This document shows positions 4,388 through 49,493 of a stretch of DNA of 49,493 nt, piece after piece. The stretch is taken from the UHGV virus genome UHGV-1368795; one strand, written 5' to 3'. This DNA is from a virus. The translations under genes and the position numbers were made by a program. The first letter of the stretch is position 1; each line of letters starts with the position of its first letter. Under the pieces are notes generated by a model that saw only the letters and a list, made by a program, of their open reading frames with translations, had not been told where the DNA came from and ran no database searches.

Positions 4388-4416
4388 TTGACGGCAGCGT
4401 CAAGGTGGGTTATAGT
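4388..4416 (+). promoter_or_regulatory. promoter TTGACGGCAGCGTCAA-N-TATAGT for islet 4447-5826
   Basis: Perfect palindrome TTGACG-N4-CGTCAA and a -10 TATAGT after a 17-nt spacer. A degenerate extra copy TTGACGAAATCATCAA lies at 4365. Confidence 0.6.
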
Positions 4417-4446
4417 TACCCTAACAGAACAACAGGAGAGTATAAA

Positions 4447-4731
4447 ATGATTCGTGAACAAGACCGTAAAGCATGGCGCAAATTTAAAATTCAGTTGGCA
4501 GTCATCATGGCTGCGGCACTGTCGGCAACAATCTACTGTAACAGTGGCCACGCTGCGCAGGGTAAGCAATTCCGGATTTATGACGGGCAGACCGACACGA
4601 TTTGCACATATCATGAGAATGAATTTGGTTATGCGGAAAGTGACGACCCGGCGTATATGGGTACCGGAGTTTGCTGGCGTAAAGATATGATGGATAAAGC
4701 AGACTTTCATATTCGGAGCAAAAGAAAATGA
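4447..4731 (+). CDS. small secreted/membrane-anchored protein
   Basis: AGGAGAG RBS. N-terminal hydrophobic signal-like segment (LAVIMAAALSATIYCNSGHAAQG). It is the first gene of a 4-gene translationally coupled plus-strand islet. Confidence 0.45.
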   Translation: MIREQDRKAWRKFKIQLAVIMAAALSATIYCNSGHAAQGKQFRIYDGQTDTICTYHENEFGYAESDDPAYMGTGVCWRKDMMDKADFHIRSKRK

Positions 4732-5204
4732 CAACAATCGCTTGGGACGGTAAATCAATTAGTGCGGATACTCAGTCCACCAGTGGTTCCACGGTGCTAC
4801 CCTGTCCAACCAAACTAATCGTAATCCAGGAACATCTGGAAATTGAAGGAAAGAAAATATTTTTAGTTGCGACAGCGGGAACATCTGGTGATGAGCGTCA
4901 TTCTTTGAAATACATTCGTGACGGTGGTCTGGAATCTGGCGAAGAAATGCACAAGCAGGTATCCAGTATACTGTTAATGATAACTACCGATGGTTGTGGA
5001 TACGTCTTCCAGAAAGACCGGGATAATTTGCTCCCGTGGGTGTGGGAACAACCTGCTCCGTATGCTGCCGGTAGTGGACGGGATTTTGCACTTGCGGCAA
5101 TGCACTGCGGTAAAAATTCACATGAAGCGGTGCAAATTGCGTCGTTACTCGACATATATACCGGTGGAAAAATAGATACCATAGTGTTACAGGTGAAATC
5201 ATGA
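4728..5204 (+). CDS. HslV/proteasome beta-subunit-like Ntn-hydrolase
   Basis: The N-terminus MTTIAWDGKSI resembles HslV TTIVSVRRNGHV, with the Thr nucleophile exposed after Met removal. The C-terminal YAAGSGRDFALAAMHCG resembles HslV GSGGPYALAAARAL. ATGA-coupled to both neighbours. Confidence 0.55.
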   Translation: MTTIAWDGKSISADTQSTSGSTVLPCPTKLIVIQEHLEIEGKKIFLVATAGTSGDERHSLKYIRDGGLESGEEMHKQVSSILLMITTDGCGYVFQKDRDNLLPWVWEQPAPYAAGSGRDFALAAMHCGKNSHEAVQIASLLDIYTGGKIDTIVLQVKS

Positions 5205-5353
5205 AATGCAAAGTGTCAGTCCGTTGGTGGTTGTTCTACCCATACCAGTCGTTGCTGATTTTCTTTGCCCGTCTGATGAACGTGGAACCGGACTGGCAGA
5301 AAGTGGGTGATTTTTTACAGAAATACTGTATCAAAGTGGAGAAGATGAAATGA
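5201..5353 (+). CDS. small hypothetical protein (50 aa)
   Basis: ATGA overlaps with both flanking genes. It is below the ORF-track length cutoff and was read directly from the sequence. Confidence 0.35.
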   Translation: MKCKVSVRWWLFYPYQSLLIFFARLMNVEPDWQKVGDFLQKYCIKVEKMK

Positions 5354-5826: not shown

Positions 5827-5828
5827 CT

Positions 5829-6305: not shown

Positions 6306-7193
6306 ATGAACACAGAAGAATTCATAGCCAAGGCTAGACTGGTTCATGGGGATAGGTACGACTATTCGAAGGCAGTTTATCACTACCGAAACCTCGTGAC
6401 CATAACCTGCAAAATACACGGGGATTTTCAAATTCGCTACGACCACCACATCGGGAAGAAGCGCGGCGGTTGTAAACAGTGCTACTTTGACTCGATGAGA
6501 GGAACAAAAGAAGAATTCATAGCCAAGGCTAGACTGGTTCATGGGGATAGGTACGACTATTCGAAATTTGAGTACGTAAACGCACAAACCAAATCGATAA
6601 TCATCTGCCCAAAACATGGTGAATTCACGCATACTCCCGCATCACATCTCGACAAATGCGGATGTCCCACGTGTAGGAGAATAAGGCAGCGAATCCCGCT
6701 GTCGCAGTTTGTTGAAAAAGCAAAATCTATTCATAACAATAAGTATGACTACTCAAAAGCGGTATACAGTGGCAGTAACGAATACTTAAAAATAATTTGT
6801 CCGGAGCATGGGGTTTTCGAAAAAACTCCAGATAATCATTGTCACAAGACGAGACCTCAAGGATGCCCAAAATGTGTCGAATACTTTGGATATCGTGACA
6901 TTCTTCCGGGGTACTTGTATCTGTTCCTGAGCGATGATTCCAAATTCATAAAGATTGGGATATCGAATAATCCCAAAAAAAGAATAAAAAAATTAAAAAA
7001 ATCAACACCTTTTGACTTTAACGTTTTGGAAATTGTTAAATTTAACGACGGTTCCGAGGCGAGAAAATGGGAAAGGACATTCCACAAAATGTACCAATCG
7101 GCTGAACTTTCGGGTTTCGATGGATGTACCGAATGGTTTAAATACGATAAGGCTGTTGCCGATTGGTACAGGTGGTTAAAAGGGGCCAAATAG
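6306..7193 (+). CDS. GIY-YIG superfamily (T5orf172-type) homing endonuclease-like protein
   Basis: The C-terminus GYLYLF...KIGIS...KRIKKLKK is a GIY-YIG/T5orf172 signature. The N-terminus carries three tandem approx 75-aa repeats (EFIAKARLVHGDRYDYSK...ICPKHG), probably DNA-binding modules. It lies on the opposite strand between tail genes. Confidence 0.65.
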   Translation: MNTEEFIAKARLVHGDRYDYSKAVYHYRNLVTITCKIHGDFQIRYDHHIGKKRGGCKQCYFDSMRGTKEEFIAKARLVHGDRYDYSKFEYVNAQTKSIIICPKHGEFTHTPASHLDKCGCPTCRRIRQRIPLSQFVEKAKSIHNNKYDYSKAVYSGSNEYLKIICPEHGVFEKTPDNHCHKTRPQGCPKCVEYFGYRDILPGYLYLFLSDDSKFIKIGISNNPKKRIKKLKKSTPFDFNVLEIVKFNDGSEARKWERTFHKMYQSAELSGFDGCTEWFKYDKAVADWYRWLKGAK

Positions 7194-7203
7194 GCCCCTT
7201 CAA
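7177..7203. terminator. bidirectional terminator (GGGGCC-AAATA-GGCCCC)
   Basis: A hairpin with the same stem as the 5829 terminator. The HEG stop codon TAG sits in its loop. T-runs lie on both strands. Confidence 0.55.
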
Positions 7204-10222: not shown

Positions 10223-10251
10223 TTGACGAATCCGTCAGTCACTGATACACT
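10223..10251 (+). promoter_or_regulatory. sigma70-like promoter with palindromic -35 operator (TTGACGAATCCGTCAG - N - TACACT)
   Basis: TTGACG -35, 17-nt spacer, TACACT -10. The palindrome TTGACG-N4-CGTCA is embedded. Confidence 0.55.
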
Positions 10252-10282: not shown

Positions 10283-10921
10283 GTGACTAGTGACCTGATT
10301 CTATTATTTCTGTCAGTAAATCCTGACTCCACCTTTAACGAGATGACAAAGTGCATGAGTATCAACGTGAGGTCAGCTTACTCAATAGTTAGTAATCTTA
10401 AAAAGTCTGGCAATATCGTATCGACGTCTAACAGGCCGCGACGGTACAGTCTCACGAAAGAATTTACCGCAAAAAGTGAAATATACGATGAGTACGTTCA
10501 CCGGGTTATTGCGGCTGGTGCCAGCACTGTGGAAAGTGTTGTCAAAGTTAGCGGACTGTCATCTTACAGGGTTGCATTGTCCATCAGAAGACTGAAGAAT
10601 TCGAACAAAATATCGACGATTACTGGGATGGGGATCACGTTGAATGAATTACCTGTTGACTTAAAACTGAAACCCTGGACAACAAAAGAAATGCGGACGC
10701 TGGAAGATTTAGCGGGGACAGTATCAATCTCTGAGATTTGTGAGACATTGGGCAGAACACCAAAAAGTATTCAGATGAAGTGTCATTTGCTTGGGTTGTC
10801 ACTGGTAACGCATACATGCAGGAAAGGACACCGCATGGTCGAACGGAAAACTGGAAAATGGGTTTGCAATGAATGTCACTCCCAGGCGGAAAGATTGAGA
10901 CGTGTGGGCAATAAAGCATAA
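10283..10921 (+). CDS. multi-winged-helix DNA-binding protein with C-terminal Zn-ribbon (putative transcription regulator)
   Basis: GTG start with a GAGGGGA RBS. Three HTH-like segments. The C-terminal CRKGHRMVERKTGKWVCNEC is paralogous to the C-terminus of the 24027-24599 protein. Confidence 0.5.
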   Translation: MTSDLILLFLSVNPDSTFNEMTKCMSINVRSAYSIVSNLKKSGNIVSTSNRPRRYSLTKEFTAKSEIYDEYVHRVIAAGASTVESVVKVSGLSSYRVALSIRRLKNSNKISTITGMGITLNELPVDLKLKPWTTKEMRTLEDLAGTVSISEICETLGRTPKSIQMKCHLLGLSLVTHTCRKGHRMVERKTGKWVCNECHSQAERLRRVGNKA

Positions 10922-11132
10922 GTCCGGAACCACCCTGTTTGTGACCACAAGTCGCATTACAGCGGTGAATCGTAGAGAAATGGGGTGGAGGGTCGCCAGT
11001 ATGTTAACGAAACACTATCGCAACTTCTTCATCATTCGGGACATCGTGGTCGAGGATGAGGGTTATTTATGTGCTGACAAAGTTATTATGAAGTATTACG
11101 GTCGTCACTACGCAGGAAGGATTGGTAAATAA
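10902..11132 (+). CDS. hypothetical small protein
   Basis: 76-aa ORF overlapping the previous gene, followed by a hairpin terminator. Confidence 0.3.
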   Translation: MWAIKHKSGTTLFVTTSRITAVNRREMGWRVASMLTKHYRNFFIIRDIVVEDEGYLCADKVIMKYYGRHYAGRIGK

Positions 11133-11152
11133 AGCCCCGTAAGGGGCTTAAA
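11131..11152. terminator. bidirectional hairpin terminator (AGCCCC-GTAA-GGGGCT)
   Basis: Lies between convergent genes. The minus-strand reading gives the hairpin followed by TTTATTT. Confidence 0.5.
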
Positions 11153-11567: not shown

Positions 11568-11568
11568 G

Positions 11569-14483: not shown

Positions 14484-15593
14484 TTATTTAAGTTTGCCAG
14501 TCTGACGCAGCAGTGCTTCTTGTGCGCGGGACAGTACAGGTTTTGCGTCGGCTACCGGCTGTTTGATGTCTTTAGCGCCATCTTTAGCCAGTTGCTCAAG
14601 CTGTGAGTCTACCACAGGTTTCACCGGTTCTTCTACAGCCATGTCGAAAGCGGCTTCAACATAGGCGGTGGATTTGTCAGCCCAGTCAATAGACGGACGT
14701 TTAACAGCAAGAGCGGCGCGTTTGATTGCGACCGGGTCCACGCTGTCGCAGGTGAATTCATTGCCAGCAACTTTACGGGCATCGATGGAAACTTTAGCAA
14801 TGGTTTCCACACGGGCCTTAATTGCCTCATCACCGACTTGAGCGGTCAGTTCAGCAATCTTTTCATTTGCGGAATCAAGCTGTGCCTGTACCGCGTCAGT
14901 TTTGGCGGATGCTGCGTCAAGCGCTGCCTGTGCCTCTTTGGACTTGGACACCACAAACTGAATTGCTTCGGCCTGTTTGGCGTCTTCGACCTCGATTGAC
15001 ACACCGTCGCAAATGTCGATTTTTAACATTACACGTCCTCGTTCTTCATCGAATATACGTGCCATTGCACCCGCACGAGCACGGTCAACAATTGCAACGT
15101 GGTTAATTTTAATCCGGGTTTGCCGGAAGTCATACGGCTCACCTTCCGGCGTTGTCCCTGGTGTATTATCATACACCGCCGTGTAACCCGCTGACAACTC
15201 ACACTTGCCGGTTTCAACAGCCTTGATCGCGTCTTTATCCTTGATAACCATATCCACAATGACAAAATCGCCGTCCTGACGACCAACACTCGTTACAACA
15301 CCGACGGAAGTGTTACGGTACGTGGAAGCATTGACAAGTGTGGAGGGATGATTATTCGTGACATCTGCGCCGAGATAGCTCTGAAGCGATTCATCGTTAA
15401 ACACTTCTTCGGCGGGACGGTACACGCGGATAATGTCGTTCGGTGCGCGGTCTTTCAGTCCCAGTTCCGAAGCGAGATATTCCTGAATACCAGTACGAGC
15501 GGCTTTACCCGGCACACGCAGGAATCCCTCATCCGTGTAAACACGTTGGGAATTCAGTGCGAAACTTTTACGGTCATTAATGGTAATTTGCAT
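14484..15593 (-). CDS. prohead protease / scaffolding fusion protein
   Basis: 369 aa. The N-terminal globular domain is followed by a long coiled-coil Ala/Gln/Glu/Lys-rich C-terminal half typical of scaffolding proteins. Located between the Mu F-like and capsid genes. Confidence 0.5.
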   Translation of the reverse strand: MQITINDRKSFALNSQRVYTDEGFLRVPGKAARTGIQEYLASELGLKDRAPNDIIRVYRPAEEVFNDESLQSYLGADVTNNHPSTLVNASTYRNTSVGVVTSVGRQDGDFVIVDMVIKDKDAIKAVETGKCELSAGYTAVYDNTPGTTPEGEPYDFRQTRIKINHVAIVDRARAGAMARIFDEERGRVMLKIDICDGVSIEVEDAKQAEAIQFVVSKSKEAQAALDAASAKTDAVQAQLDSANEKIAELTAQVGDEAIKARVETIAKVSIDARKVAGNEFTCDSVDPVAIKRAALAVKRPSIDWADKSTAYVEAAFDMAVEEPVKPVVDSQLEQLAKDGAKDIKQPVADAKPVLSRAQEALLRQTGKLK

Positions 15594-15667
15594 TGACGAA
15601 TCCGTCAGAGTATGCCATAGTGATAATCGTTAAACACATAATACATATATTTCACAGGAGATACAAC

Positions 15668-16189
15668 ATGACCACGTGGAACTACATCATCGGTAGTGAG
15701 AAGGACTTCGAAGGTGCGCCGGATTGGGCAGTGATGAAGTGTTATTGTTCATTAGACGGCGAACCAAATGACGACACCGCATGGTGTGAAGGTATTTTTA
15801 AAGGCGCATCGTGGAAATCTCTGGAGAAAGACTCACGACTTCAAAAAATGGGTTATCCAGAGCAGTGGTTTACAATCGCCCAGCGCGAACCCGTCACCGG
15901 TATCAATGATGACCGTCTGCTCGACTCACTTAACGACCTTCCGCTGGTGAGTGAGAAGTACCCTGAGCATGACAATATCAACCACCCGTTACGCTACACG
16001 AAGGGCGATATCGAATGTATCGATGCCATTAAGGCCGCCACCGTCGGTAAAACTGGTATCGAGGCTGTGGACGTTGGTCACGTTATCCGTTACCTGTGGC
16101 GTTATGAAGAGAAAGACGGGTTGGAAAGTGTGAAGAAAGCCGAATGGTATATTAAACACTTGATTAATGAGCTGGAGAGCAACAAATGA
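15668..16189 (+). CDS. DUF3310-like phage protein
   Basis: The real start is ATG 15668 with an AGGAG RBS. The C-terminal KGDIECIDAIKAA...VIRYLWRY...KAEWYIKHLI matches the DUF3310 pattern. Confidence 0.5.
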   Translation: MTTWNYIIGSEKDFEGAPDWAVMKCYCSLDGEPNDDTAWCEGIFKGASWKSLEKDSRLQKMGYPEQWFTIAQREPVTGINDDRLLDSLNDLPLVSEKYPEHDNINHPLRYTKGDIECIDAIKAATVGKTGIEAVDVGHVIRYLWRYEEKDGLESVKKAEWYIKHLINELESNK

Positions 16190-16300
16190 AACCATACGCA
16201 TACGAAGTGACGACATATCTGGTCCGAGCGGGCAGTGTGGCGCATAACAACGCTGTTATGTTCGGGTATCAACTGAAACCACTGTATGAGGGTGAGTGAG

Positions 16301-16501
16301 ATGACCAACACCATCCCACGCTACCCAACCGGGACACTTGTGAAGTTATTCCCTGACGGTGTCGTTACCGGCACTGTTGAAAATGTTGTTGCAAATGACC
16401 CGCCGCAGTATTGGGTCAAATGGGACGATGGTAATTACAGCTGTCACGCACAGCGCGATTTGAAACGAGTGGGGACATTGTATGGACCTTCTTCTGCTTA
16501 G
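16301..16501 (+). CDS. hypothetical small protein
   Basis: ORF in the plus-strand islet, starting MTNTIPRYPTG. Confidence 0.4.
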   Translation: MTNTIPRYPTGTLVKLFPDGVVTGTVENVVANDPPQYWVKWDDGNYSCHAQRDLKRVGTLYGPSSA

Positions 16502-16534
16502 TGTCGGCGTTGTGATTTGGGTCGCATATTTAAG

Positions 16535-16564
16535 TTGACGAGTTCGTCAGGGATGACGTATACT
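16535..16564 (+). promoter_or_regulatory. promoter TTGACGAGTTCGTCAG-N-TATACT
   Basis: Palindromic -35 element, 18-nt spacer and a near-consensus -10. Confidence 0.55.
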
Positions 16565-16597
16565 CAGTTCATCAACAACAGAGAGGGTGACACAAAA

Positions 16598-16747
16598 TGA
16601 ACACATTACTCCCCGGCTACAACCGCCCCGTATCAGAGGCGCGCATTGTCGATAAAGAACTGTTAAAGAATGCACAACAGCTTGCACGCAAGCATGAAGG
16701 TTGGGCGCTCGCTAACGCTGTGTTACGTGAGGCGTATGGAAAATGAA
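16598..16747 (+). CDS. hypothetical small protein
   Basis: 49-aa ORF with a GAGGGTGA RBS. Read directly from the sequence. Confidence 0.35.
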
Positions 16748-16940
16748 CTATAAACCCATCAAGGCGGTAATGCTCCGCAACAATGACCGGATTATCGATG
16801 TGGACGGTATTATCACCGTGACAAACTTCAAACTGAACTTCCGCGAAGATATCGTGACATTTACCGCGACCAAAGAGGATGGTTCGGTATCTGAACGATG
16901 GATAGCGATGGACCGACTTGTCAATAAGGTGGTGGGTTAA
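16743..16940 (+). CDS. hypothetical small protein
   Basis: 65-aa ORF with an ATGA overlap to the next gene. Confidence 0.4.
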   Translation: MNYKPIKAVMLRNNDRIIDVDGIITVTNFKLNFREDIVTFTATKEDGSVSERWIAMDRLVNKVVG

Positions 16941-17128
16941 TGGGTATTATTAAAGGTGTACTAATTACCCTGCTCGCAGGGTGGGTAATTCTGGCAACAA
17001 TCGCCACGCTGCCGCTGGAACTGGAATACAAGTGGCAAGCATGGGCAATTGTAACGTGGGGACCAGTCGTTGTCGTTGCTGGTCTGTGGGAAGTGGTGAA
17101 TCGGGTATGTGGAGGGCGTGGGAAATGA
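16940..17128 (+). CDS. small membrane protein (2 TM)
   Basis: Two hydrophobic helices. Confidence 0.4.
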   Translation: MGIIKGVLITLLAGWVILATIATLPLELEYKWQAWAIVTWGPVVVVAGLWEVVNRVCGGRGK

Positions 17129-17231
17129 TTGATGTACTCAACTTCATTGCTGATAACTGGTTCGGAACATTAGTATTTGGTTACCTACTGTTCCTGGGCG
17201 TCGAAAGTTTGATTGAAACGTGGAGGGGTAA

Positions 17232-17420
17232 ATGACCGTACTCATGTGGTTTCTTGTCTGGCGCTGGGTGGTCATACTGCACATGACGGACGGTACTTTT
17301 TATTCGAATAACCTGCGCCACAGAATTTTAATGACGCTCCATAACGACAACGCTTACGGTTGCCGCAAACACCCTGTTATCTATAACGACATGTGCCGCA
17401 TTGTGAGAGGTGGGAAATGA
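17232..17420 (+). CDS. hypothetical small protein
   Basis: 62-aa ORF ending the islet. Confidence 0.3.
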   Translation: MTVLMWFLVWRWVVILHMTDGTFYSNNLRHRILMTLHNDNAYGCRKHPVIYNDMCRIVRGGK

Positions 17421-19284: not shown

Positions 19285-19313
19285 TTGACGGCCTCGTCAG
19301 TATGGTGTAGAGT
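19285..19313 (+). promoter_or_regulatory. promoter TTGACGGCCTCGTCAG-N-TAGAGT
   Basis: Lies directly upstream of islet 19351-20206. It overlaps the start codon of the minus-strand head morphogenesis gene. Confidence 0.55.
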
Positions 19314-19350: not shown

Positions 19351-19656
19351 ATGACACAGTTTAAAGGTACACCCGGTCCGTGGGAAATCAAGCCGGAAGA
19401 AGTTGACAGACCGTATATTCGAATTCGCGGAACACAATGTGGCGGACGATTCAAAGTTGCAAACGTTTTGTCCCCCGATTACGACGGCGTTCATCATCGT
19501 GAAGCCGACGAAACTCGCGCAAATGCACGTCTCATTGCTGCCGCTCCGGAACTGCTGGAGGCGTTGCAATTAATGCTGGATTCTCAAGTATTACCGGTTT
19601 GGCATCAATCAATTGCCCGCGCAGCCATCAACAAAGCAACAGGAGAGACAAAATGA
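19351..19656 (+). CDS. hypothetical protein with NARLIAAAPELLEALQ motif
   Basis: AGGAGAAGAGAG RBS. The core motif is shared with gene 35641-35904. Confidence 0.5.
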   Translation: MTQFKGTPGPWEIKPEEVDRPYIRIRGTQCGGRFKVANVLSPDYDGVHHREADETRANARLIAAAPELLEALQLMLDSQVLPVWHQSIARAAINKATGETK

Positions 19657-19988
19657 CATTACTTGAACTATTGCGTCAGGAATTACCAGAGCGTGGCGGT
19701 TGGCCGAAGGGTGTGGCGGCAATGGCGCAAGACGCCGACGGCGCGGTACAAAATTATATCGATACCCACGACATCAGAATAAACTATGAATTCGCGCAAG
19801 GTAATTCAAGAATTGCTTACAGCTATAGTATTGACTCAGGCGAATGCGAAGTTTCAACCGACAGATTAACCGCCATTGTCACACGTGAACAATACGAAGC
19901 GGAATGCGCGATTGATGAAATGGTTCGGTTGTCAGGCGTGTCAATCGGTGCGGCTAAGATTCTGTATGATGCGGGGTATCGGAAATGA
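19653..19988 (+). CDS. hypothetical protein
   Basis: 111 aa, ATGA coupled. Confidence 0.45.
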   Translation: MTLLELLRQELPERGGWPKGVAAMAQDADGAVQNYIDTHDIRINYEFAQGNSRIAYSYSIDSGECEVSTDRLTAIVTREQYEAECAIDEMVRLSGVSIGAAKILYDAGYRK

Positions 19989-20206
19989 AACGTTGTTCAG
20001 TGTTTTGTTACTATGAGGGGATGGATGGCATTGGGCGAAGTATCTGCAGCGGCAATCACACTTGTGATATCGAATATGAATTTTTTGTGAGTGCACCAGA
20101 GTATGTCAAAAATACTACCGACTATCTGATGAACGAATTAAAACCGACTTACGCTAATCTTGCGCGGGTGGTTTTAAAGCAAGTGACAATCTTTCCCGGT
20201 GACTAA
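19985..20206 (+). CDS. hypothetical Cys-rich small protein
   Basis: 73 aa, ATGA coupled, followed by a hairpin terminator. Confidence 0.4.
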   Translation: MKRCSVFCYYEGMDGIGRSICSGNHTCDIEYEFFVSAPEYVKNTTDYLMNELKPTYANLARVVLKQVTIFPGD

Positions 20207-20210: not shown

Positions 20211-20236
20211 ACTGGCCCGTTACTGGGCCAGTTTTG
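20211..20236 (+). terminator. rho-independent terminator (ACTGGCCC-loop-GGGCCAGT-TTTTG)
   Basis: 8-bp stem and T-run. It overlaps the 3' end of the convergent portal gene. Confidence 0.55.
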
Positions 20237-23510: not shown

Positions 23511-23685
23511 GTTGATTAACCCTCACCGAATCCCACTTCAAACTGGATGCGCAGCGTTTTAACTCGTTCCACGCATTTTTCCATTTCATCCAGCAAACGA
23601 AAAACTTCCACCCAATTCGTTGTCATACCCGCCCCCACGCTATTGTCTCTAATGCCACGATTTTACCATGACTGTACCGTCATTG

Positions 23686-32931: not shown

Positions 32932-33078
32932 ACTTTGCGCACGCTGTTCGACTCAACCATACGTGCTTTTCTGATTAGTTTACGTGCCACATACATCGGT
33001 ATCTGCACATCGTCGAGGAACCATTTGTCCTTCTTACTGACCGAGTTGTACCAGCCGTAAGAAGGTCGGAGCAGTTGT

Positions 33079-33252
33079 TTAATTTGTGTCATTTTTACTC
33101 ATCTCCCATGCTGCGGAAAATGCTGACCAAGCCAGTCTGACTCCTAATCTCATGTACTCGCCGTTCCATGACTTATCAAATACGTAATCTGATTTACAGT
33201 CTTCGGTTTTACCCCAGACTTCCATATACCACTTCTCAAATTCTTCTCTCAT
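33079..33252 (-). CDS. hypothetical small protein (first gene of leftward early operon)
   Basis: Start MREEFEKWY with a GAGAGG RBS, downstream of TTGACA-N17-CATAAT. The track ORF extends to a GTG at 33300, which is less likely. Confidence 0.4.
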   Translation of the reverse strand: MREEFEKWYMEVWGKTEDCKSDYVFDKSWNGEYMRLGVRLAWSAFSAAWEMSKNDTN

Positions 33253-33285
33253 TGTTGCATCCTCTCGGTCATTGACGCTCCCGTC

Positions 33286-33314
33286 ATTATGTCGCACCAC
33301 CCTCCCCGTGTCAA
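33286..33314 (-). promoter_or_regulatory. leftward early promoter TTGACA-N17-CATAAT with downstream operator palindrome
   Basis: Near-consensus sigma70 elements on the minus strand. The TTGACGCTCCCGTCA palindrome (33272-33286) lies just downstream of the -10. Confidence 0.6.
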
Positions 33315-33328: not shown

Positions 33329-33357
33329 TTGACGAGTGCGTCATGGTGGTATAGAGT
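33329..33357 (+). promoter_or_regulatory. rightward early promoter TTGACGAGTGCGTCAT-N-TAGAGT
   Basis: Palindromic -35 element and a -10 TAGAGT at 17-nt spacing. Divergent from the leftward promoter. Confidence 0.55.
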
Positions 33358-33389: not shown

Positions 33390-34280
33390 ATGAGTAATAT
33401 CACCTTAACCATCCCGAACGACGACAGCGTGGCATTGTATCACTTTGGTAAGTCATTGATTAGTATGTCCGCAACCATCGACGGTGCGCCGGACTGGGTA
33501 GTTATTGCGGCTCAGGAATACGACCGATTGAAACAACTGGAAGAATTATCACAGGCTCAGCACATTAAAGTAAATATCGACTCATCTGATATCGAGCAAC
33601 TGAGCGAAGCTCTGAAAAAGGTCGAACCGACTGGATTGATTCATACAGACGTGGTTATCGACACGACCGCTCAACAGGTTGAGTCGCTGGCTGTACCAAT
33701 GGGTGACAATGAAGAGCAAGCACCACCCACCACCGACTCAACCGGTACACCGTGGGACGAGCGTATCCACTCTGCCAGCAAAGCGCTCAATGCGGACGGT
33801 ACGTGGCGTCTGCGTCGTAAGCCGAAGGATATGGATGAGGCGGAGTGGTCCGACTACGTGAGCATGATTAAAGCCGACCTGCAATATCCGGTTGAATGCG
33901 GTGGCGAGGGAGAAGAAATTAGCGAACCGACACGAGAAGAAGTCGATGAACTCATCGAAGCCTCCAACAAGATGTTGGAACCACCTGTAACACCGCCGGG
34001 TGACGACTTCCACACGGACGCAGACGTGGTAACCGAGCAAACTGTTGCCGGTATTCCGCCAATTCCTGTACCGCCGCCAGTAGTTGTTGCACCGTCTGTA
34101 ACCGAGTGGGACTTCCCGCGCCTCATGACCTTCCTGACCGAGCGTCACGGTAAGATTGATGTGACAACTGTGAACACGCTGCTGGCGCAGGATGGTATGT
34201 CGTCGGTGCAGGAACTGAACGCCCACCCGGATAAAATCGGTCCGTTCGTGGCACGTGTTAAAGCGCATTTGGGGGAGTGA
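33390..34280 (+). CDS. acidic hypothetical protein sharing GTPWDERIH motif with DNA polymerase C-terminus
   Basis: 297 aa, highly acidic, Pro-rich C-terminal half. The motif STGTPWDERIHSASKA is repeated in the polymerase tail. Confidence 0.5.
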   Translation: MSNITLTIPNDDSVALYHFGKSLISMSATIDGAPDWVVIAAQEYDRLKQLEELSQAQHIKVNIDSSDIEQLSEALKKVEPTGLIHTDVVIDTTAQQVESLAVPMGDNEEQAPPTTDSTGTPWDERIHSASKALNADGTWRLRRKPKDMDEAEWSDYVSMIKADLQYPVECGGEGEEISEPTREEVDELIEASNKMLEPPVTPPGDDFHTDADVVTEQTVAGIPPIPVPPPVVVAPSVTEWDFPRLMTFLTERHGKIDVTTVNTLLAQDGMSSVQELNAHPDKIGPFVARVKAHLGE

Positions 34281-34284
34281 GACG

Positions 34285-34497
34285 ATGGATACAGACTACG
34301 GTTTTAAAGTTTGTCCCTTTTGCGGTCAAAATGACTTTGAAATTGAAACAGATACTGTTCATCCCGACAATATACACATGGCATGGGTTACTTGTCAAAA
34401 TGGTGAATGTTCGGCGAAAGGTCCAGATGCTTTTTGGTTTGATGACCTGAAAGAAGCTAAGGACGAGGCAGTAATTTTATGGAACAGGCGCAAATGA
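34285..34497 (+). CDS. Lar-like restriction alleviation protein (Zn-ribbon)
   Basis: 70 aa. CPFCG...C..GEC plus the C-terminal ILWNRRK matches the Lar_restr_allev signature WNRR. Confidence 0.55.
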   Translation: MDTDYGFKVCPFCGQNDFEIETDTVHPDNIHMAWVTCQNGECSAKGPDAFWFDDLKEAKDEAVILWNRRK

Positions 34498-35627
34498 CCA
34501 CACAACTACCCAAAGTATCCGACGCCAACCAGTGGATGGTCTGTAACGGTTCATTCCGGGCGCAGCAGGCTTATCCGCCACTGGACGTCGAACCGTCACA
34601 ATCCCGGCTGGAGGGCCGGGCATGTCACGAAGTGGCTCAGAAGTTATTCAAAAATGAGCCATTCAGTGACCTGGTGGGCAGTCTGTCAAAGGATGGAATT
34701 GTTATCACGAATGAACTGTTTGACGCTGCCCGTGAGTATTTTAACGAGGTGTGGGGTTACTGTAACACTCACGGACGAGTGCACGACCTTCACGTTGAGG
34801 AAGTGTGTCCTGTCCCGGGTTACGGTGACTGGTTCTGTATTCCCGATGCGTGGGTGTACGTACCGGAAGTGAAGGTGTTACGCGTTTACGATGCGAAATT
34901 CGGTCACCGCATTATTGACCCGTTTGAGAACTGGCAACTGTTAATTGAAGCGTTTAGTATCTGTGAAACGCATCATCTTGATGTTGACATTATTGAACTG
35001 GTCATCGTACAGCCACGCGGATTCACCAGTGACGGTACGGTGCGTAAATGGGCGCTCACATACGATGAACTGTGCGCATACCGGCAGCAGGTGAACGAGG
35101 CGATGCCCCGCGTGCTGGACACCACGCCGATGTGTACGCCCGGACCACATTGCCTCGACTGTAGCGCACGTGCACACTGTGACACGCTGAAGCAACAAAG
35201 TTACGCTGGTGTGGACTACGTGACGTCGTTGCAGACGCACAACCTGTCCGGTCATGCCCTGGGTGTTGAATTGCGACTCCTGCAGCGTGCACAGGAGATG
35301 ATTAAAATGCGTCTCAGTGGTCTGGAGGAACAAGCACTGCACGAGATTAAACAGGGCCAACACGTGACATTTTACAGCGCTAAAACCACGTACGGTCGTA
35401 AGCGCTGGAAGAAAGATGTACCGGTGGACCAGGTGATTATGATGGGGGATTTACTCGGTCAGAATTTACGTAAGCCGCAGGAACTGGACACACCCGCACA
35501 GTGTGCGAAAAAAGGTATCGACCCGTCCGTTATTGAACAGTACGCTGAAACACCTGTCACGGGTGTCAAGCTGGAACAGGTTGATGAACGCAGTATCCGT
35601 AGTGTATTTGAACGCAATACTAACTAA
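34479..35627 (+). CDS. Cas4/RecB-like PD-(D/E)XK exonuclease with Fe-S cysteine cluster
   Basis: One N-terminal Cys plus a C-terminal C-x5-C-x2-C-x5-C cluster (CTPGPHCLDCSARAHC). Nuclease core VYDAKFG...QLLIEAF. Confidence 0.55.
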   Translation: MEQAQMTTQLPKVSDANQWMVCNGSFRAQQAYPPLDVEPSQSRLEGRACHEVAQKLFKNEPFSDLVGSLSKDGIVITNELFDAAREYFNEVWGYCNTHGRVHDLHVEEVCPVPGYGDWFCIPDAWVYVPEVKVLRVYDAKFGHRIIDPFENWQLLIEAFSICETHHLDVDIIELVIVQPRGFTSDGTVRKWALTYDELCAYRQQVNEAMPRVLDTTPMCTPGPHCLDCSARAHCDTLKQQSYAGVDYVTSLQTHNLSGHALGVELRLLQRAQEMIKMRLSGLEEQALHEIKQGQHVTFYSAKTTYGRKRWKKDVPVDQVIMMGDLLGQNLRKPQELDTPAQCAKKGIDPSVIEQYAETPVTGVKLEQVDERSIRSVFERNTN

Positions 35628-35907: not shown

Positions 35908-35936
35908 TTGACGCACTCGTCAAACTAACGTAGTAT
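35908..35936 (+). promoter_or_regulatory. promoter TTGACGCACTCGTCAA-N-TAGTAT
   Basis: Perfect outer palindrome, 17-nt spacer. Upstream of the SSB-like gene. Confidence 0.55.
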
Positions 35937-35990
35937 TCAAATCACCGGGAGACAGAGGGTCTCCCACACTTAGCAGAGAGGATTTACAAG

Positions 35991-39522: not shown

Positions 39523-39534
39523 AATACCGGCGCA

Positions 39535-39816
39535 TCACTGCGCCGGATTTGATACACGCCGACGCAATTCATCAAGTTCAAGCTGTGCTCGTTCAGCCTC
39601 CAGACGAGCAATAATTTCCTTCTCCTTACGCTCGGCGGACTCATTACGAATTCGCCGTATGTGACCGTAAATCATAATGATGGTCAACAGAATACCACAC
39701 AGGGTGGCAAAGATACCAATGGTCTCCGGAGTGACGCCATACTTAGTCATCAACCCCGTCACCGTCGTCCCGCTTGCCACCACTGTTCCGGCTTGTGTGT
39801 TTCCGGTGAAGCTCAT
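39535..39816 (-). CDS. putative holin-like single-TM membrane protein
   Basis: One TM (IGIFATLCGILLTIIMIYG) followed by a highly charged C-terminus. It is adjacent to the lysis cassette but on the opposite strand. The track start is a TTG at 39846; the ATG at 39816 is preferred. Confidence 0.35.
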   Translation of the reverse strand: MSFTGNTQAGTVVASGTTVTGLMTKYGVTPETIGIFATLCGILLTIIMIYGHIRRIRNESAERKEKEIIARLEAERAQLELDELRRRVSNPAQ

Positions 39817-40253: not shown

Positions 40254-40421
40254 TGTTTATTTGGTCCGGCGTTTTACTTTGGCACCGCCCGCATCACCGG
40301 TTTTACCGCGGGGCTTAACACATGCTCCACCAGCGTCACCTGCCTTACGTGGTTTAGTCTTGTACATTTTATCGCCCTTGTATGTTAGGATTAAACCTAA
40401 TTGTACAGCAGGTGTTACCGA

Positions 40422-40979
40422 ATGAAAAATCCTTTAAGTAAACAAATGACCGCCCTTCTCACCGCATTTGCAATGGGTGGTACGGGTACTGCGGTAGTCA
40501 CGCAGACGGACATCCTCAATCAGTTCCTGAACGAGAAGGAAGGGAACAGACTGACAGCCTATCTGGATAGTGCAAACCCTCCCATCTGGACCATCTGCCG
40601 GGGTGTGACGCGCATCGATGGTAAGCCAGTGACAAAGGGTATGCGGCTTACTGAAAAGCAATGCGACCTTCTGAACGATAAGGAAGCACAGAAGTCACTC
40701 AAATGGGTACGTGACAACATCCCGGTAAAACTGAACCCGGTGCAACAGGTCGGCATTGCATCGTTCTGCCCGTACAACATTGGACCTACCAAATGTAAGG
40801 GGTCGACATTCTTCAAATTGCTGCAAAAAGGCGACTGGAAGAACGCGTGCAAACAGATTCCCAAATGGGTGTTTGACGGTGGTAAAGACTGCCGCATCAA
40901 AAGCAACAACTGTTCCGGACAGCCAATTCGCCGGGAGCAGGAAGAGTATTTATGCCTGTATACACTGGGGGAGAAATGA
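40422..40979 (+). CDS. SAR endolysin (GH24 phage lysozyme with N-terminal signal-anchor-release domain)
   Basis: The N-terminal MTALLTAFAMGGTGTAVV is a SAR-type Gly/Ala-rich weak TM. EGNRLTAYLD...TICRGVT is the T4/P1-lysozyme E-D-T catalytic triad region. Confidence 0.7.
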   Translation: MKNPLSKQMTALLTAFAMGGTGTAVVTQTDILNQFLNEKEGNRLTAYLDSANPPIWTICRGVTRIDGKPVTKGMRLTEKQCDLLNDKEAQKSLKWVRDNIPVKLNPVQQVGIASFCPYNIGPTKCKGSTFFKLLQKGDWKNACKQIPKWVFDGGKDCRIKSNNCSGQPIRREQEEYLCLYTLGEK

Positions 40980-41302
40980 TGCGTAACGTGATACTCGCCG
41001 GGGTAATCGGTAGTATAATGGTTGCAGTGTACGCTATGGGTTATTTTTCGGGTAAAAATGCGGTCAAGCTGGACGATTTCAAGGAATATAAGGCGGCCGT
41101 CGAAGCCCGTGACGCACTGCAGGAAAAACTGAATGCTTCCGATGTGGAATTGCAGAAAAAGCAACAGGAACTGAAAGAAGCCCGGGCAAAAAAAGTCGTT
41201 GAGAAAGTCACTATTTACCGCGACCGAATCAAAGACTCCGCTACCGCTCAGTGCGTCAAAGAGAGCGGCATCCTCGACCTGTATGATGCGACCGTAAAAT
41301 GA
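40976..41302 (+). CDS. i-spanin (Rz-like)
   Basis: N-terminal TM followed by a periplasmic coiled-coil. ATGA overlap with the endolysin stop. Confidence 0.6.
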   Translation: MMRNVILAGVIGSIMVAVYAMGYFSGKNAVKLDDFKEYKAAVEARDALQEKLNASDVELQKKQQELKEARAKKVVEKVTIYRDRIKDSATAQCVKESGILDLYDATVK

Positions 41303-41535
41303 AAAAACTTATCCTGCTGGTATCTGTACTTGCTTTAACCGCCTGTGCTCAGGAAGTGCGCAAGTGTCCGCCGCCATCTAATGACCTGCTTACGCCGAGT
41401 GGTGAATTGTGGACAACCGATGGTGACCCCGAACGAGCTGCCACAGTAATTCCACATAACGGGGAAGTTCTGATGGCCGACCGGGACAGAGTGTCCCGGT
41501 GGCAAAACTGGTGGGAAGGTTGTAAAACCTTATGA
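41299..41535 (+). CDS. o-spanin (Rz1-like lipoprotein)
   Basis: Signal peptide with the lipobox LTAC, a Pro-rich mature part and a C-terminal Cys. ATGA overlap with the i-spanin. This is a separated two-component spanin. Confidence 0.65.
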   Translation: MKKLILLVSVLALTACAQEVRKCPPPSNDLLTPSGELWTTDGDPERAATVIPHNGEVLMADRDRVSRWQNWWEGCKTL

Positions 41536-46737: not shown

Positions 46738-47942
46738 ACGATGGTCACCGTGATGTTTGAGGTTGTCCAGCGGGATAATTCGTTAAAGTCAATGGTAACA
46801 TTCGCCGTGCCGCCATTCAACGTCATACTGTTAACGTAACTGTTACCGTATGAGCCAATGACTTTGTTGATGGGTGTGTAAAGCGAACTGTACGGGACTG
46901 TTTCACCAATATCAAACCCGTCTGGCTTAAAACCGTACTCTGTCGGAATCAGACCACCCGCGGCATATTCTATGATTGCGTCCCGAATGAGTGGTTCAAG
47001 GGTTGCCTGAGACGGTAGAGAACCGTCATCTTTAATCTCAATGACTACCATCATGTCCACATATACGGGGCGACTAAATTTGATATCTTTGGTCATTGTC
47101 GGGTAAGTAGGCGACGTGACAGTGACCGTTACTGGTGTACCAGCCTGATAAAGTGTGACACCCGGATTCTTTTTAAGATAGATAGCCATCGCTACATCGT
47201 CGTCCGTGCCACCATCGACGATGGGTGCAATACTGTGACCGGGCTGATCGTTGCTGTCGGTTGTGGCTTCGTCGTTCTCATAGACACGTACGCGGCGTAC
47301 ACCATCCACATTGAACAACTGACCCAGCATTGAATCAACCTGGTTACTACCCGGCAGACCCACAGCTGTTGCTCGTTTAAGGCGTAGTGACCCATCCGAT
47401 TCGGCAGATGTACCGGGTGTTGCTGGAGTAGGGTTATTAACTGATACCAGACCAGCGACTGTGTCCACGATGGTCGTAATGGTATTGGCGTCCGCTTCAA
47501 TTTCGCCAACTGTGGTACATGTGATATCGACCGTTGCGGTGCCAGAACTATCCAGTGTCCACGTCTGGTCGAGCGCGAATCGATAACCTGTCACAGATGA
47601 TTCAAAGCGTGTACCAGCAGGAACCTGAGTGCCGGGGGTACCAGTTAACACGAACCCCGTAACAGTCGATGCGGTACCTTCACTCCTGACGGTACCTGTC
47701 AGCGCGCAAATCACGTCGAGGTCATAGCCACTGGCTTTATTCGGGTCTTTGGAGTTGTACGCCTGTTGTAACACTTCATCGAGCGCGGAGAAGATTTCAG
47801 CATCGTGCGCTATCTTCAACCCATCGGGGGTGGACGGGTCGAGATTCCAGTTACTGTCGATACCCAGATATAACTGTTTTTCTTCGTCGAACCAGTCATT
47901 CTGTGATTTTACGCTATAGCCGGTACTGGTTAATTCAGCCAT
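46734..47942 (-). CDS. baseplate J-like protein
   Basis: 402 aa in the position and at the size of P2 J / Mu gp47. ATGA coupled to the fibre gene. Confidence 0.55.
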   Translation of the reverse strand: MAELTSTGYSVKSQNDWFDEEKQLYLGIDSNWNLDPSTPDGLKIAHDAEIFSALDEVLQQAYNSKDPNKASGYDLDVICALTGTVRSEGTASTVTGFVLTGTPGTQVPAGTRFESSVTGYRFALDQTWTLDSSGTATVDITCTTVGEIEADANTITTIVDTVAGLVSVNNPTPATPGTSAESDGSLRLKRATAVGLPGSNQVDSMLGQLFNVDGVRRVRVYENDEATTDSNDQPGHSIAPIVDGGTDDDVAMAIYLKKNPGVTLYQAGTPVTVTVTSPTYPTMTKDIKFSRPVYVDMMVVIEIKDDGSLPSQATLEPLIRDAIIEYAAGGLIPTEYGFKPDGFDIGETVPYSSLYTPINKVIGSYGNSYVNSMTLNGGTANVTIDFNELSRWTTSNITVTIV

Positions 47943-48282
47943 TCTCGGTCACCGTTAATAATCCGTAGGAGGTCAACACGCTGGCGGTGACCGTATAAGT
48001 TTTGTTGTCGATGTCGAAATCGGTACTAAAACTGGTTAACTGCATGACACCGGGAGTACCCGCGATGCGTTCACGGAGGCGTGCTTCGCGGACATCCATA
48101 GAAGTTTGTTTGTTGAGTATCTCCTGAAACCACGGTGTACCGTCAGTCACATCCCGGAAATACTCACCCAGAAACAGACGCAGGCGAGTACGTATCGTCT
48201 GTTCTATTTCCAGTTGTTCAGTGATGAACATCGAACCCTGGGTAACGATGTCACCATCTTCATCTAATTTACGTACTGTCAT
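47935..48282 (-). CDS. baseplate W/gp25-like protein (uncertain)
   Basis: 115 aa, directly upstream of the J-like gene. Confidence 0.4.
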   Translation of the reverse strand: MTVRKLDEDGDIVTQGSMFITEQLEIEQTIRTRLRLFLGEYFRDVTDGTPWFQEILNKQTSMDVREARLRERIAGTPGVMQLTSFSTDFDIDNKTYTVTASVLTSYGLLTVTENG

Positions 48283-48956
48283 CAGTTATTCGGCCCCGTA
48301 TTAGAACCACCGGAAGCAACGCCACCATGGGTGTGTCCATCAATTTCTTTACCGTTTAAAATAAGTGAACCGGGGGCGACAATATTACCATCTTTATCAA
48401 TTGTCACCCCGTTGATATTTGCGGTTCCATCTGCGAGTAATGTCACGTGGCCATTTGCATTTTTAATCATACATGACGTATCGTTTTTTAACCAGACGTA
48501 CTGTGATGCATCCACGTTGCGCAAGCGAATACCATCATTAACGAAACCGGCTATCAGGTTGTCAAGTGAACGAATTCCCGGTACGAACATTGCGTCCTGT
48601 TTGTGGTGGAAGCGTTTGACGGGATTGGCAGCAATGCCGCCGGTCTGCTTCCATCCATCAATGCAACGTTGACTGAAATGTACCATGCCCTCACAACCGG
48701 GTTTAATCTCGAACTCCAGTACGAAGTCATCGCCCGGGAAACTTACGGGAACGTCCACGATGGGCGGTGGGTCAAACGTAGTTTTAGCGACATCATCGGT
48801 CCGGGTGATTCCCAGTTGAATTTGTGCGCGCTGTGTGTCTGGGTCGAACGTCAGCACGTAACCCGGGATGCAAGTGTACACGTCCTTCATGTTCTCGAAA
48901 AACGTGTCATTGGTGACGTTCTGTAAAAATGAGCGGCGCTGGTTAATGTCGGTCAT
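48282..48956 (-). CDS. baseplate spike/V-like protein (uncertain)
   Basis: The preferred start is ATG 48954-48956 with an AGGAGGG RBS; the track start at 49007 is a TTG. First gene of the baseplate operon. Confidence 0.4.
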   Translation of the reverse strand: MTDINQRRSFLQNVTNDTFFENMKDVYTCIPGYVLTFDPDTQRAQIQLGITRTDDVAKTTFDPPPIVDVPVSFPGDDFVLEFEIKPGCEGMVHFSQRCIDGWKQTGGIAANPVKRFHHKQDAMFVPGIRSLDNLIAGFVNDGIRLRNVDASQYVWLKNDTSCMIKNANGHVTLLADGTANINGVTIDKDGNIVAPGSLILNGKEIDGHTHGGVASGGSNTGPNN

Positions 48957-49493
48957 GTCGCCCTCCTGCGAAAATAATGTCAAGTATACTATTGACACTC
49001 GCGTCAAACAATGTAATTATTTATTTGCAGGCATATAGCACATGTGTCTTTAGCGGTCCGGGGTGTCCTATTCCTTCGCATCAGCGGGTAGCCGGAATGT
49101 GTAGCCAGGCATGCACGAATGCGGTTGGTCACCGCGGCGGTTCGACCAATACAACAGGTGAGGACATTGAGTAGTGCGTACAGGCTCCAGCGTGGTAACG
49201 CACATTCTTCACACGGTGCAGAGCGAAACAGTGTTCTCACCTGTTGTAACCATCGAGTGAGGTGGTCCAATCTTGCTGACGGGTAAGCCGTAAGTGACTG
49301 GAGTAATGTTGTGAAACATAACAACAGTTGCGACGATGGTTTAGAGTTGTGGTGAATGCGCAGGCTGATGCGCGCAGGAAAGCTTCGGAAGAACAAGGTA
49401 CCTGTATACAAGCCGGAGACCAGCACCGGCCACCACAACTGTAAACCATAATCTCTCTGTTGTGCTCCTGCATGTTTGCCCCGGTCTCCGGGG

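Follow-up and report, generated by a model that had tools for sequence, protein, structure and literature searches.

A palindromic element of sigma70-type promoters in a Jedunavirus-type Klebsiella phage and a truncated TetR-like protein as its putative repressor

Control of many dispersed promoter operators by one phage repressor is a well known principle. In the temperate phage P1, lysogeny (immunity) is maintained by the repressor C1, whose operators, asymmetric 17-mers numbering more than ten, are spread around the genome and each overlap the promoter of a different transcription unit. The stoperators of mycobacteriophage L5 gp71 and Bxb1 gp69 and the conserved inverted repeats of Streptomyces phage phiC31 are present in dozens of copies, which are recognized by a single small helix-turn-helix (HTH) protein. 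Stoperators lack symmetry, depend on orientation and work at the level of elongation; the promoters of phiC31 fall outside the sigma70 type, and both kinds of system serve lysogeny. Here we describe a 16-bp palindrome, TTGACG-N4-CGTCA(A/G/T), that recurs at promoters of the virus genome UHGV-1368795 (49,493 bp; hereafter, the window), together with a 92-amino-acid TetR-like protein (mini-TetR; 29801-30079, minus strand) that may bind it. In TetR/tetO and the Aca autorepressors, too, a small HTH dimer binds an inverted repeat over core promoter elements and autoregulates its own gene, and Aca2 autorepression through an inverted repeat at its own promoter has been described (PMC6765145, PMC8434428). 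Escherichia coli RutR, a TetR-family dimer, binds TTGACCAnnTGGTCAA (PMC2475637) and is a regulator of carP1 and of pyrimidine catabolism genes (PMC2952853, PMC2475637). Among 20 RutR targets mapped by chromatin immunoprecipitation on microarrays (ChIP-chip), seven were intergenic, 12 lay inside open reading frames (ORFs) and one overlapped a start codon (PMC2475637). Comeau et al. (2012) mentioned 'tetR-like cellular transcriptional regulators' for phiPLPE, CP-T1 and phage 138, with the suggestion that these had been co-opted (PMC3391216). A search of the open literature, with subscription journals outside its scope, found no description of the motif, of Jedunavirus promoters or of phage TetR regulators, and the Jedunavirus genome papers checked mention neither promoters nor the mini-TetR regulator.

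The proposed circuit of the window resembles that of P1 C1 in having dispersed operators at separate transcription units, but its sites are symmetric and its protein is of the TetR type; in addition, unlike temperate P1, the window's relative IME346 is annotated with no integrase and no cI-type repressor. With L5, Bxb1 and phiC31 it would share one short site across the genome and global control by one regulator. TetR is released by a ligand and acts at one divergent locus, and the Aca proteins belong to other HTH families and act on one operon, whereas the phage circuit has no ligand domain and about 13 target sites. The RutR box and the phage site are both 16-bp palindromes with identical outer TTGAC...GTCAA bases and half-site centres 10 bp apart, and both RutR, which reads its site as a dimer, and mini-TetR have a TetR-type HTH. 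However, the phage site differs from TTGACCAnnTGGTCAA at positions 6, 7, 10 and 11, with G6/C11 and a free N4 where RutR has C6-A7/T10-G11, and it does not qualify as a RutR box. The phage protein is also far shorter than the solved TetR-family chains that it matches (170-273 amino acids), lacking an effector-binding/dimerisation domain, and the phage sites overlap core promoter elements, whereas only seven of the 20 RutR targets are intergenic. RutR thus serves as an analogy, in that a TetR-type dimer can read a 16-bp TTGAC/GTCAA geometry, and as a weak lead towards a host factor. What seems new is that a truncated TetR-type regulator is paired with a symmetric operator merged with the -35 box, and that this occurs in phages with no integrase in the annotations of their relatives; CP-T1, one of the more distant phages discussed below, is recorded as derived from an induced lysogen.

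The window is a complete, circularly permuted genome of a Jedunavirus-type Klebsiella myophage. Its nearest records (IME346, VLCpiM12a, KB2 and others) are 90-94% identical over 60-72% of the window length, and no record matching the window covers 80% or more of that length. The virion genes are arranged in minus-strand blocks, which are broken up by short plus-strand islets, and a divergent replication region lies at about 24.6-39.5 kb. The exact motif TTGACGNNNNCGTCA gave 13 strand matches at 10 places (4388, 10223, 15593, 16535, 19285, 26177, 31140 on the minus strand, 33272, 33329 and 35908), compared with a mean of 0.00 in 100 dinucleotide-preserving shuffles. With up to one mismatch, 26 strand matches were obtained at 13 places, the added ones being 4365, 30122 and 48992, while the shuffles gave a mean of 1.43 strand matches and a maximum of six. 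TGACG-N4-CGTCA ranked first in a blind count of k-mer/gap/reverse-complement palindromes (10 observed, 0.13 expected), and the 15-mer TTGACGAATCCGTCA is identical at 10223, 15593 and 26177. A genome-wide family of this kind, including the three identical 15-mers, had been proposed from the letters of the window (the sequence-only reading), and the strong enrichment over shuffled sequence bears it out. Its list of sites was essentially right, but it missed 31140 (minus strand, -10 box CATACT, in the helicase gene) and 4365, and the site that it placed at 48993 begins at 48992.

The palindromic promoters are predicted to be of the sigma70 type. On one strand, a -10-like hexamer lies 16-18 bp from the end of TTGAC at 11 of the 13 places, as against 10.6% of random positions (binomial P=1.2e-9), and 10 of the 13 places fall outside the ORFs of a greedy map that covers 88.8% of the genome. 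Eleven sites carry TTGACG, TTGACC or TTGACA, with 5-6 of six matches to the -35 consensus TTGACA, and the same number have a TAnnnT-like -10 box at 17 +/- 1 bp. The two sites that fail as -35 boxes, 33272 and 4365, nonetheless lie within other promoters, whose -35 hexamers are TTGACA at 33314 and TTGATT at 4384. Altogether the 13 sites extend from 4365 to 48992 and belong to about 12 promoters, as expected of a dispersed operator. The -10 box 17-18 nt downstream that the sequence-only reading ascribed to the family is therefore present at 11 places, at 16-18 bp, but not at 33272, which overlaps the -10/+1 region of a leftward promoter. That reading had listed 26177 among the plus-strand promoters, whereas it is a minus-strand promoter with TATCTT; the site given there as 30121, with the strand left unstated, is indeed a promoter, on the minus strand, with CATACT. 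Nor do the palindromes head every plus-strand islet, as had been supposed: the islet 23547-24599 has an ordinary promoter at 23964, TTGACT-18-TACAAT, the plus-strand genes 40401-41535 have no palindromic site nearby, several of the sites belong to promoters of the minus strand, and two or three represent operators in a different register.

Orthologous promoter regions were taken from IME346 and 29 IMG/VR Jedunavirus loci and aligned with MAFFT, and distinct regions were counted. At the 26177 promoter, TTGACG is present in 22 of 22 distinct regions and CGTCAA in 21, around nine variants of N4. The 33272 site keeps TTGACG in 27 and CGTCAT in 28 of 29 regions (five N4 variants), and at 33329 both TTGACG and CGTCA are kept in 25 of 25, with T or G as the last base and four N4 variants. 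Likewise, the two halves at 35908 are conserved in 21 and 20 of 21 regions, again with four N4 variants. The promoter of the mini-TetR gene has a deviating operator, TTGACC-actc-CGTCAA, of which both halves are present in 26 of 26 distinct regions. G6/C11 occurs in 130 of 180 distinct Jedunavirus sites, and C6 is found mainly at the promoter of the TetR gene itself. Since the centre drifts and the halves are held, the distal half appears to be kept by selection and not by recent copying. The second half-site is thus selected in its own right, so that a dimeric protein very probably reads the palindrome, as the sequence-only reading had argued from the conservation of both halves. In addition, the palindrome occurs in three registers, namely over the -35 box, over -10/+1 (33272) and within the promoter spacer (4365), which fits a predicted operator better than a mere variant of the -35 box. 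A hairpin or other structural role is disfavoured, because the half-site sequence itself is held, and not merely its complementarity, while N4 is free; moreover, most copies lie upstream of the transcript that they control. Bidirectional -35 elements, offered earlier as an alternative, are not supported either, as a usable -10 box is present on both strands only at 15593 and 26177 (2 of 13 sites).

Among the genes common to all motif-bearing genomes (listed below), only mini-TetR has a recognisable sequence-specific HTH. Residues 19-65 of its 105-residue ORF match Pfam TetR_N (PF00440) with 28.7 bits against a cut-off of 24 (E 1.1e-6), and in the 92-residue protein this HTH is followed by a short helical tail. 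All PDB sequence matches are to N-terminal domains of TetR-family proteins, covering residues of about 3-74 and mostly 3-60; the 35 PDB sequences matched at E<=1 include none that bears the name RutR or YcdC. An AlphaFold2 model (predicted local distance difference test score, pLDDT, 93.8) has seven short helices in 92 residues. Its top Foldseek matches in the PDB are all TetR-family regulators (query-normalised TM-score 0.5-0.68), full-length proteins of 170-222 residues, including EilR bound to DNA, AmvR and EbrR, which align on the DNA-binding domain. After helix 4, only three short helices remain (62-70, 74-77 and 81-91), and the C-terminal effector-binding/dimerisation domain of the family, of about 100-150 residues in helices 4-9/10, is missing. 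According to these models and matches, the protein is a mini-TetR, with a TetR HTH but outside the canonical family. As there is no ligand-binding domain, ligand-triggered release from DNA is probably absent. Full-length structural matches (TM-score 0.87-0.89) are confined to viral proteins without a name, of 97, 98 and 166 residues, and the corresponding PHROGs family, phrog_8723, is listed as of unknown function.

An exhaustive profile search gave 1,463 cluster representatives of the mini-TetR family at E<=1e-10. The best 150 of these are 86-216 residues long, being either of about 92-115 residues or, in roughly half of them, of about 160-175 residues with two matched stretches. The longer versions look like a tandem form, as in Scuro, and may be single-chain pseudo-dimers. 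The regulators of Acinetobacter phages (L003, 21424-21924; proteins P0121-P0128) are of about 166 residues and have an extra N-terminal HTH-like domain.

The palindrome was also sought in four distant phages, Pantoea phage AAM22, Acinetobacter phage Scuro, Vibrio phage CP-T1 and Edwardsiella phage PEi21, whose mini-TetR proteins are 49%, 40%, 36% and 33% identical to that of the window. In these four and in IME346, the palindrome that ranks first or nearly first is TTGAC-N6-GTCAA or one of its inner variants, TGACG/TGACA. AAM22 carries 10 copies of TGACG-N4-CGTCA, and Scuro carries five of TGACA-N4-TGTCA (0.03 expected), in which both inner bases are changed symmetrically; in the Acinetobacter clade the recognition helix differs alongside this change. 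TTGAC-N6-GTCAA is present in six copies in CP-T1, which carries at least nine copies of the motif, and in five copies in PEi21, where TGAC-N6-GTCA occurs 13 times (1.4 expected). In these distant phages the palindromes again lie 17 bp upstream of -10 boxes. The palindrome core is thus kept between phages that are only 33-50% identical in protein sequence.

A gene-by-gene comparison showed that the overlap between Scuro and the window is essentially confined to the replication module (primase, mini-TetR, a 157-residue endonuclease, helicase, a proline-rich 296-residue protein, a DUF2800 nuclease and a single-stranded DNA-binding (SSB)-like protein), and Scuro has the palindrome; primase, helicase, endonuclease, the 296-residue protein, the DUF2800 nuclease, the SSB-like protein and mini-TetR are also the genes common to all motif-bearing genomes. 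In contrast, Vibrio phage 1.199.A (MG592569) shares only the structural module and the islet architecture; mini-TetR is missing from it (tblastn, E>1), and TGAC-N6-GTCA does not occur in it even once. Therefore, the motif follows the replication module. Phage 1.199.A has a palindrome of its own, TGTGA-N6-TCACA, nine times against 0.07 expected, which is identical to the core of the CRP box and suggests a different global regulator, either host CRP or the phage's own winged HTH (wHTH) protein.

A palindromic promoter lies immediately before the mini-TetR gene in the window, AAM22 (TTGACCATACCGTCAA), CP-T1 (TTGACCGTTTCGGCAA), PEi21 (TTGACAACAGCGTCAA) and Scuro, and also in the IMG/VR lineages L061, L108, L117 and L155. 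A palindromic promoter on the gene itself is a predicted signature of autoregulation, and a conserved imperfect operator at its own gene is what a self-limiting repressor usually has. We also scanned IMG/VR for the motif only (TTGACG-N4-CGTCAA-N7-TAnnnT) and then sought mini-TetR with a hidden Markov model built from nine family members. The scan matched at least 118 fragments, many of them chance singletons. Among the matches listed, at least 18 fragments encode mini-TetR, mostly at E<=1e-22, and they represent at least nine lineages only 26-49% identical to the protein of the window. Most of the other multi-site fragments among the matches listed carry parts of the replication module (25-69% identity). 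Among 50,697 phage records, 95 contain mini-TetR homologs. Clusters of near-identical TTGACG-N4-CGTCAA palindromes were also noticed in four IMG/VR contigs unrelated to the window (L069, L086, L100 and L131), with no mini-TetR detectable in the fragments; two of these (L069 and L086) have no homolog of the window, and the other two have one weak match each (20-25% identity). TTGACGGTACCGTCAA occurs three times within 2.2 kb of a 76.6-kb contig, and L086 has five sites within 1.4 kb.

Taken together, the comparisons make it reasonably probable that the 16-bp palindrome is an operator through which a ligand-independent mini-TetR dimer represses the sigma70-type promoters; a suitable palindrome is present and co-occurs with the gene. 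That mini-TetR is the binder, that it dimerises and represses, and that its targets are early are the parts of this proposal that we infer. The earlier suggestion of one regulator for the whole early programme holds to the extent that one protein could control many promoters, its early timing being among these inferred parts. In ten promoters, the near-consensus sigma70 -35 box, followed by a 17-bp spacer, is at the same time the left half-site, and a dimer over about -35 to -20 would block sigma region 4. The operator is over -10/+1 at 33272 and in the spacer at the 4384 promoter (4365). At the start of infection, host RNA polymerase would fire the palindromic promoters unaided, and mini-TetR would be produced both from the leftward early string of genes and from a promoter of its own, whose operator is weaker. 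The accumulating protein would dimerise via its short tail, occupy the operators, occlude sigma region 4 or open-complex formation and turn the whole set down together, the strong operators being shut first and the promoter of mini-TetR last. As there is no ligand domain, no inducer would be expected and dosage alone would set the timing. Silencing of the antisense islets would also remove head-on transcription against the virion-gene blocks. A bolder form of this proposal, which we hold only tentatively and regard as rather doubtful, is that mini-TetR is the ligand-free, dosage-timed master switch of a widespread family, which silences early promoters antisense in virion operons, including that of a noncoding transcript of ~470 nt, and so resolves head-on conflicts and licenses the late genes, with its 40-residue tail as a new minimal dimerisation module.

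Several points weigh against repression by mini-TetR. The protein is without the canonical TetR dimerisation domain. The operators at 4365, 15593 and 19285 coincide with or adjoin the 5' ends of virion genes on the minus strand, and an 'early off, late on' model leaves the escape of these genes from the repressor unexplained; late promoters were not identifiable in this analysis. PY6, R9Y2 and CKB-S1 encode more distant mini-TetR homologs (27-40% identical, tblastn) and show no enrichment of TTGAC-N6-GTCAA in the 27-28 kb examined, the motif being absent from CKB-S1 despite a 39.7% identical protein, so that the presence of a homolog is not a strict predictor of the motif. The differences in the recognition helix do not map cleanly to the operator variants, and no simple code could be extracted from them. 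Because mini-TetR always travels with the replication module, the phyletic argument cannot single it out. The open literature yielded no binding, footprint, transcription start site, 5'-end or expression data for these phages. Pseudoalteromonas phage PY6, whose mini-TetR is 33% identical, has another palindrome, GTAGCGC-N4-GCGCTAC, in 5-6 copies against an expectation of at most 0.18 (176, 8372, 15982, 20350 and 21257). At least the copies at 20350 and 21257 fall within the spacer and -10 box of TTGACA-17-TACACT promoters, and this palindrome may reflect a diverged specificity or a different regulator. In R9Y2, an excess of CGAC-N6-GTCG is mostly in coding sequence, and nothing convincing was found in R9Y2 or CKB-S1.

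Of the other explanations, the one that survives best, although we consider it unlikely, is that the palindrome is bound by a different protein, either one encoded in the replication module or a small one that is unannotated, and that mini-TetR does something else. The candidates are the 296-residue protein (33390-34280) and the small proteins 33079-33252, 32919-33092 and 30744-30977. Such a binder would be in keeping with the tie of the motif to the whole module and not to one gene, with several small ORFs to which no family is assigned, and with the motif-free homologs of CKB-S1 and R9Y2. However, the small ORFs are not conserved across AAM22, Scuro, CP-T1 and PEi21, the 296-residue protein is of low complexity with no match to a DNA-binding family, and the remaining conserved members are the primase, the helicase, the nucleases and the SSB-like protein; only mini-TetR has its own palindromic promoter in many lineages. 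The same comparison bears on the three binders put forward by the sequence-only reading. Of these, only the TetR-like protein (29801-30079) fits. Homologs of the 10283-10921 protein, which matches TrmB/wHTH weakly, are missing from all four distant genomes, and only AAM22 and PEi21 have the 24027-24599 protein.

The palindrome might be read by a host factor, for example a TetR-family protein resembling RutR or some other dimer found across Gammaproteobacteria, which would let the phage sense the state of its host. The RutR consensus agrees with the phage site at 10 of 14 defined positions, some of the sites targeted by RutR in vivo match at only 9-11 of the 14, and all the hosts are Gammaproteobacteria. 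Nevertheless, the motif follows the phage replication module and not the host (Klebsiella, Pantoea, Edwardsiella, Vibrio or Acinetobacter), as is seen from the two Vibrio phages, 1.199.A with none and CP-T1 with its many copies. The predominant G6/C11 of Jedunavirus sites is not the C6/G11 of RutR, the PDB matches of mini-TetR include no RutR or YcdC chain, and the invariant deviant operator on the phage TetR gene makes sense as self-regulation. We therefore regard a host reader as improbable.

We give similarly little weight to the idea that mini-TetR binds the palindrome as an activator, a sigma-appropriating factor, a roadblock or an insulator. Some TetR-family proteins, including RutR at carAB, also activate, and the operators beside virion-gene 5' ends (15593, 19285 and 4365) could have another role. 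But with a -35 match of 5/6, a 17-bp spacer and good -10 boxes, activation should be unnecessary, and the regulator's own promoter, which must fire first, is equally well formed. The dimer would be centred near -27.5, or over -10/+1, which are classic positions for occlusion by a repressor. Finally, that no regulator is involved, and the palindrome is a back-to-back -35 pair or a spacer preference of RNA polymerase spread by copying of promoter cassettes, is very improbable: the left half does constitute a -35 box, both strands score at 15593 and 26177, and the identical 15-mers and the shared spacer and leader (ggtgggt, AACAACA..GAGAG) suggest cassette duplication, but -10 boxes usable on both sides are confined to those two sites, at most sites the reverse -35 is disrupted by the outermost distal base (A, G or T), neither 33272 nor 4365 is a -35 box, CGTCA is held at orthologous promoters while N4 diverges, which points to ongoing selection, the core persists in distant phages, and no sigma70 contact is known to require GTCA at about -24 to -21.

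Jedunaviruses have been isolated in large numbers as therapeutic candidates against Klebsiella, and the proposed circuit offers one 92-residue protein, one 16-bp operator and about a dozen mapped target promoters, with a reach into Pantoea, Vibrio, Edwardsiella and Acinetobacter phages and many metagenomic lineages. If true, it would account for the coordination of islets antisense within structural operons and provide a minimal, inducer-independent TetR-type repressor/operator pair. Its natural specificity variants (TGACG versus TGACA, and possibly the PY6 palindrome) would be usable as orthogonal parts, and promoters and regulons could be annotated in hundreds of related phage genomes.

The individual sites are arranged as follows. 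At 4388-4416 (plus strand), the perfect palindrome TTGACGgcagCGTCAA (4388-4403) forms the -35 box and the proximal spacer, with TATAGT (4411-4416) as the -10 box, and the promoter heads a plus-strand islet with its first ATG near 4447. Next to it, at 4356-4384 (minus strand), is the leftward promoter TTGATT(4384-4379)-17-TACACT(4361-4356), conserved in IME346, which contains the one-mismatch palindrome TTGATGatttCGTCAA (4365-4380) inside its spacer and heads the gene 3953-4327 and tail genes. TTGACGaatcCGTCAG-7-TACACT (10223-10251, plus strand) heads 10283-10921 and 11001-11132, and TTGACGaatcCGTCAG-7-CATAGT (15593-15621, plus strand) heads the islet 15668-17420, within which lies a further promoter, TTGACGagttCGTCAG, with an 18-bp spacer and TATACT (16535-16564, plus strand). 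TTGACGgcctCGTCAG-7-TAGAGT (19285-19313, plus strand) heads the islet 19351-20206. The palindrome at 15593 adjoins the ATG (15593) of the minus-strand head-protease gene, and that at 19285 ends 3 nt from the ATG (19282) of the minus-strand gene for a 617-residue head protein. These two palindromes (15593-15608 and 19285-19300) touch the start codons of the two head genes and could fold over the ribosome-binding site in the minus-strand mRNA; at 19285 the sole Shine-Dalgarno-like GAGG is supplied by N4 and flanking bases.

In the replication region, TTGACGgattCGTCAA-7-TATCTT (26164-26192, minus strand) is directly downstream of a terminator hairpin. The promoter of the mini-TetR gene, TTGACCactcCGTCAA-7-CATACT (30109-30137, minus strand), has the deviant operator with C for G at position 6, and TTGACGcgctCGTCAG-7-CATACT (31127-31155, minus strand) lies within the helicase gene. 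The leftward early promoter TTGACA(33314-33309)-17-CATAAT(33291-33286), spanning 33272-33314 on the minus strand, heads the helicase / mini-TetR / primase gene string, with the first ATG near 33252. Its CATAAT runs directly into the palindrome ATGACGggagCGTCAA (33287-33272), which covers about -8 to +8 and has no correctly spaced -10 box of its own on either strand. In the opposite direction, TTGACGagtgCGTCAT-7-TAGAGT (33329-33357, plus strand) heads 33390-35627, which encodes the 296-residue protein and the DUF2800 nuclease, and TTGACGcactCGTCAA-7-TAGTAT (35908-35936, plus strand) heads the SSB-like gene (35991) and the DNA polymerase gene. The leader of the latter contains, at about 35947-35966 upstream of the SSB-like gene, a perfect hairpin GGGAGAC-AGAG-GGTCTCCC, which is nearly invariant among Jedunavirus relatives and varies in two of 15 distinct orthologs. 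A CA-rich leader AACAACA(A/G)(C/G)(A/G)GAG recurs between the -10 box and the start codon, and a spacer ggtgg(g/t)(t/a) between the operator and the -10 box, at the promoters 4388, 16535, 26192 and 33329; this suggests duplicated promoter-leader cassettes or a shared translational enhancer.

The islets are antisense within the virion-gene blocks. A palindromic promoter bounds them on one side, and most of them are closed on the other by a hairpin that resembles a bidirectional terminator. The hairpins are GC-rich, with A runs on one side and T runs on the other (7178-7200, 11131-11150, 20211-20237, 24606-24630, 26203-26229 and 39526-39549). Placed at convergent junctions of islets and minus-strand blocks, and overlapping gene ends only 9-16 nt apart, they look like bidirectional terminators. 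No such hairpin is evident at the junction 17420/17429, and Rfam and tRNA scans of the window found nothing. MN923124.1 (record name Acinetobacter phage LAPP1) encodes a major capsid protein 100% identical to that of the window and matches 64% of the window's second half at 90.6%; its host is given as Acinetobacter pittii, which is odd for an otherwise typical Klebsiella Jedunavirus genome.

The last site is the one-mismatch palindrome TTGACActcgCGTCAA with the weak -10 box AATTAT (48992-49020, plus strand), which points into a gene-poor gap of ~480 bp. The position of this site, antisense to baseplate genes, is conserved in AAM22, CP-T1 and PEi21. The gap (48992-49493 and 1-12), between tail and baseplate genes, contains no conserved ORF and is unannotated in IME346, and it ends in a strong intrinsic terminator across the window junction, CCCCGGTCTCCGGGG then CTTTTTTTTTTT. 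It is a candidate for a noncoding RNA of ~470 nt transcribed from the 48992 promoter. RNAfold gave z = -2.3 for the plus strand and -0.5 for the minus strand, and the gap had no Rfam or tRNA match. Within it, a segment of ~90 nt (49349-49440), which has GTGGTG...CACCAC as its terminal inverted repeat, shares 95-96% identity with a stretch of the late leader of lambdoid phage HK620, between qut and the late terminator tQ (NC_002730 16096-16185); it also matches phage ZCKP8, and Stx2c-converting phages are among the matches. IME346 has a different sequence at this place. The segment looks like a small mobile or structured element.

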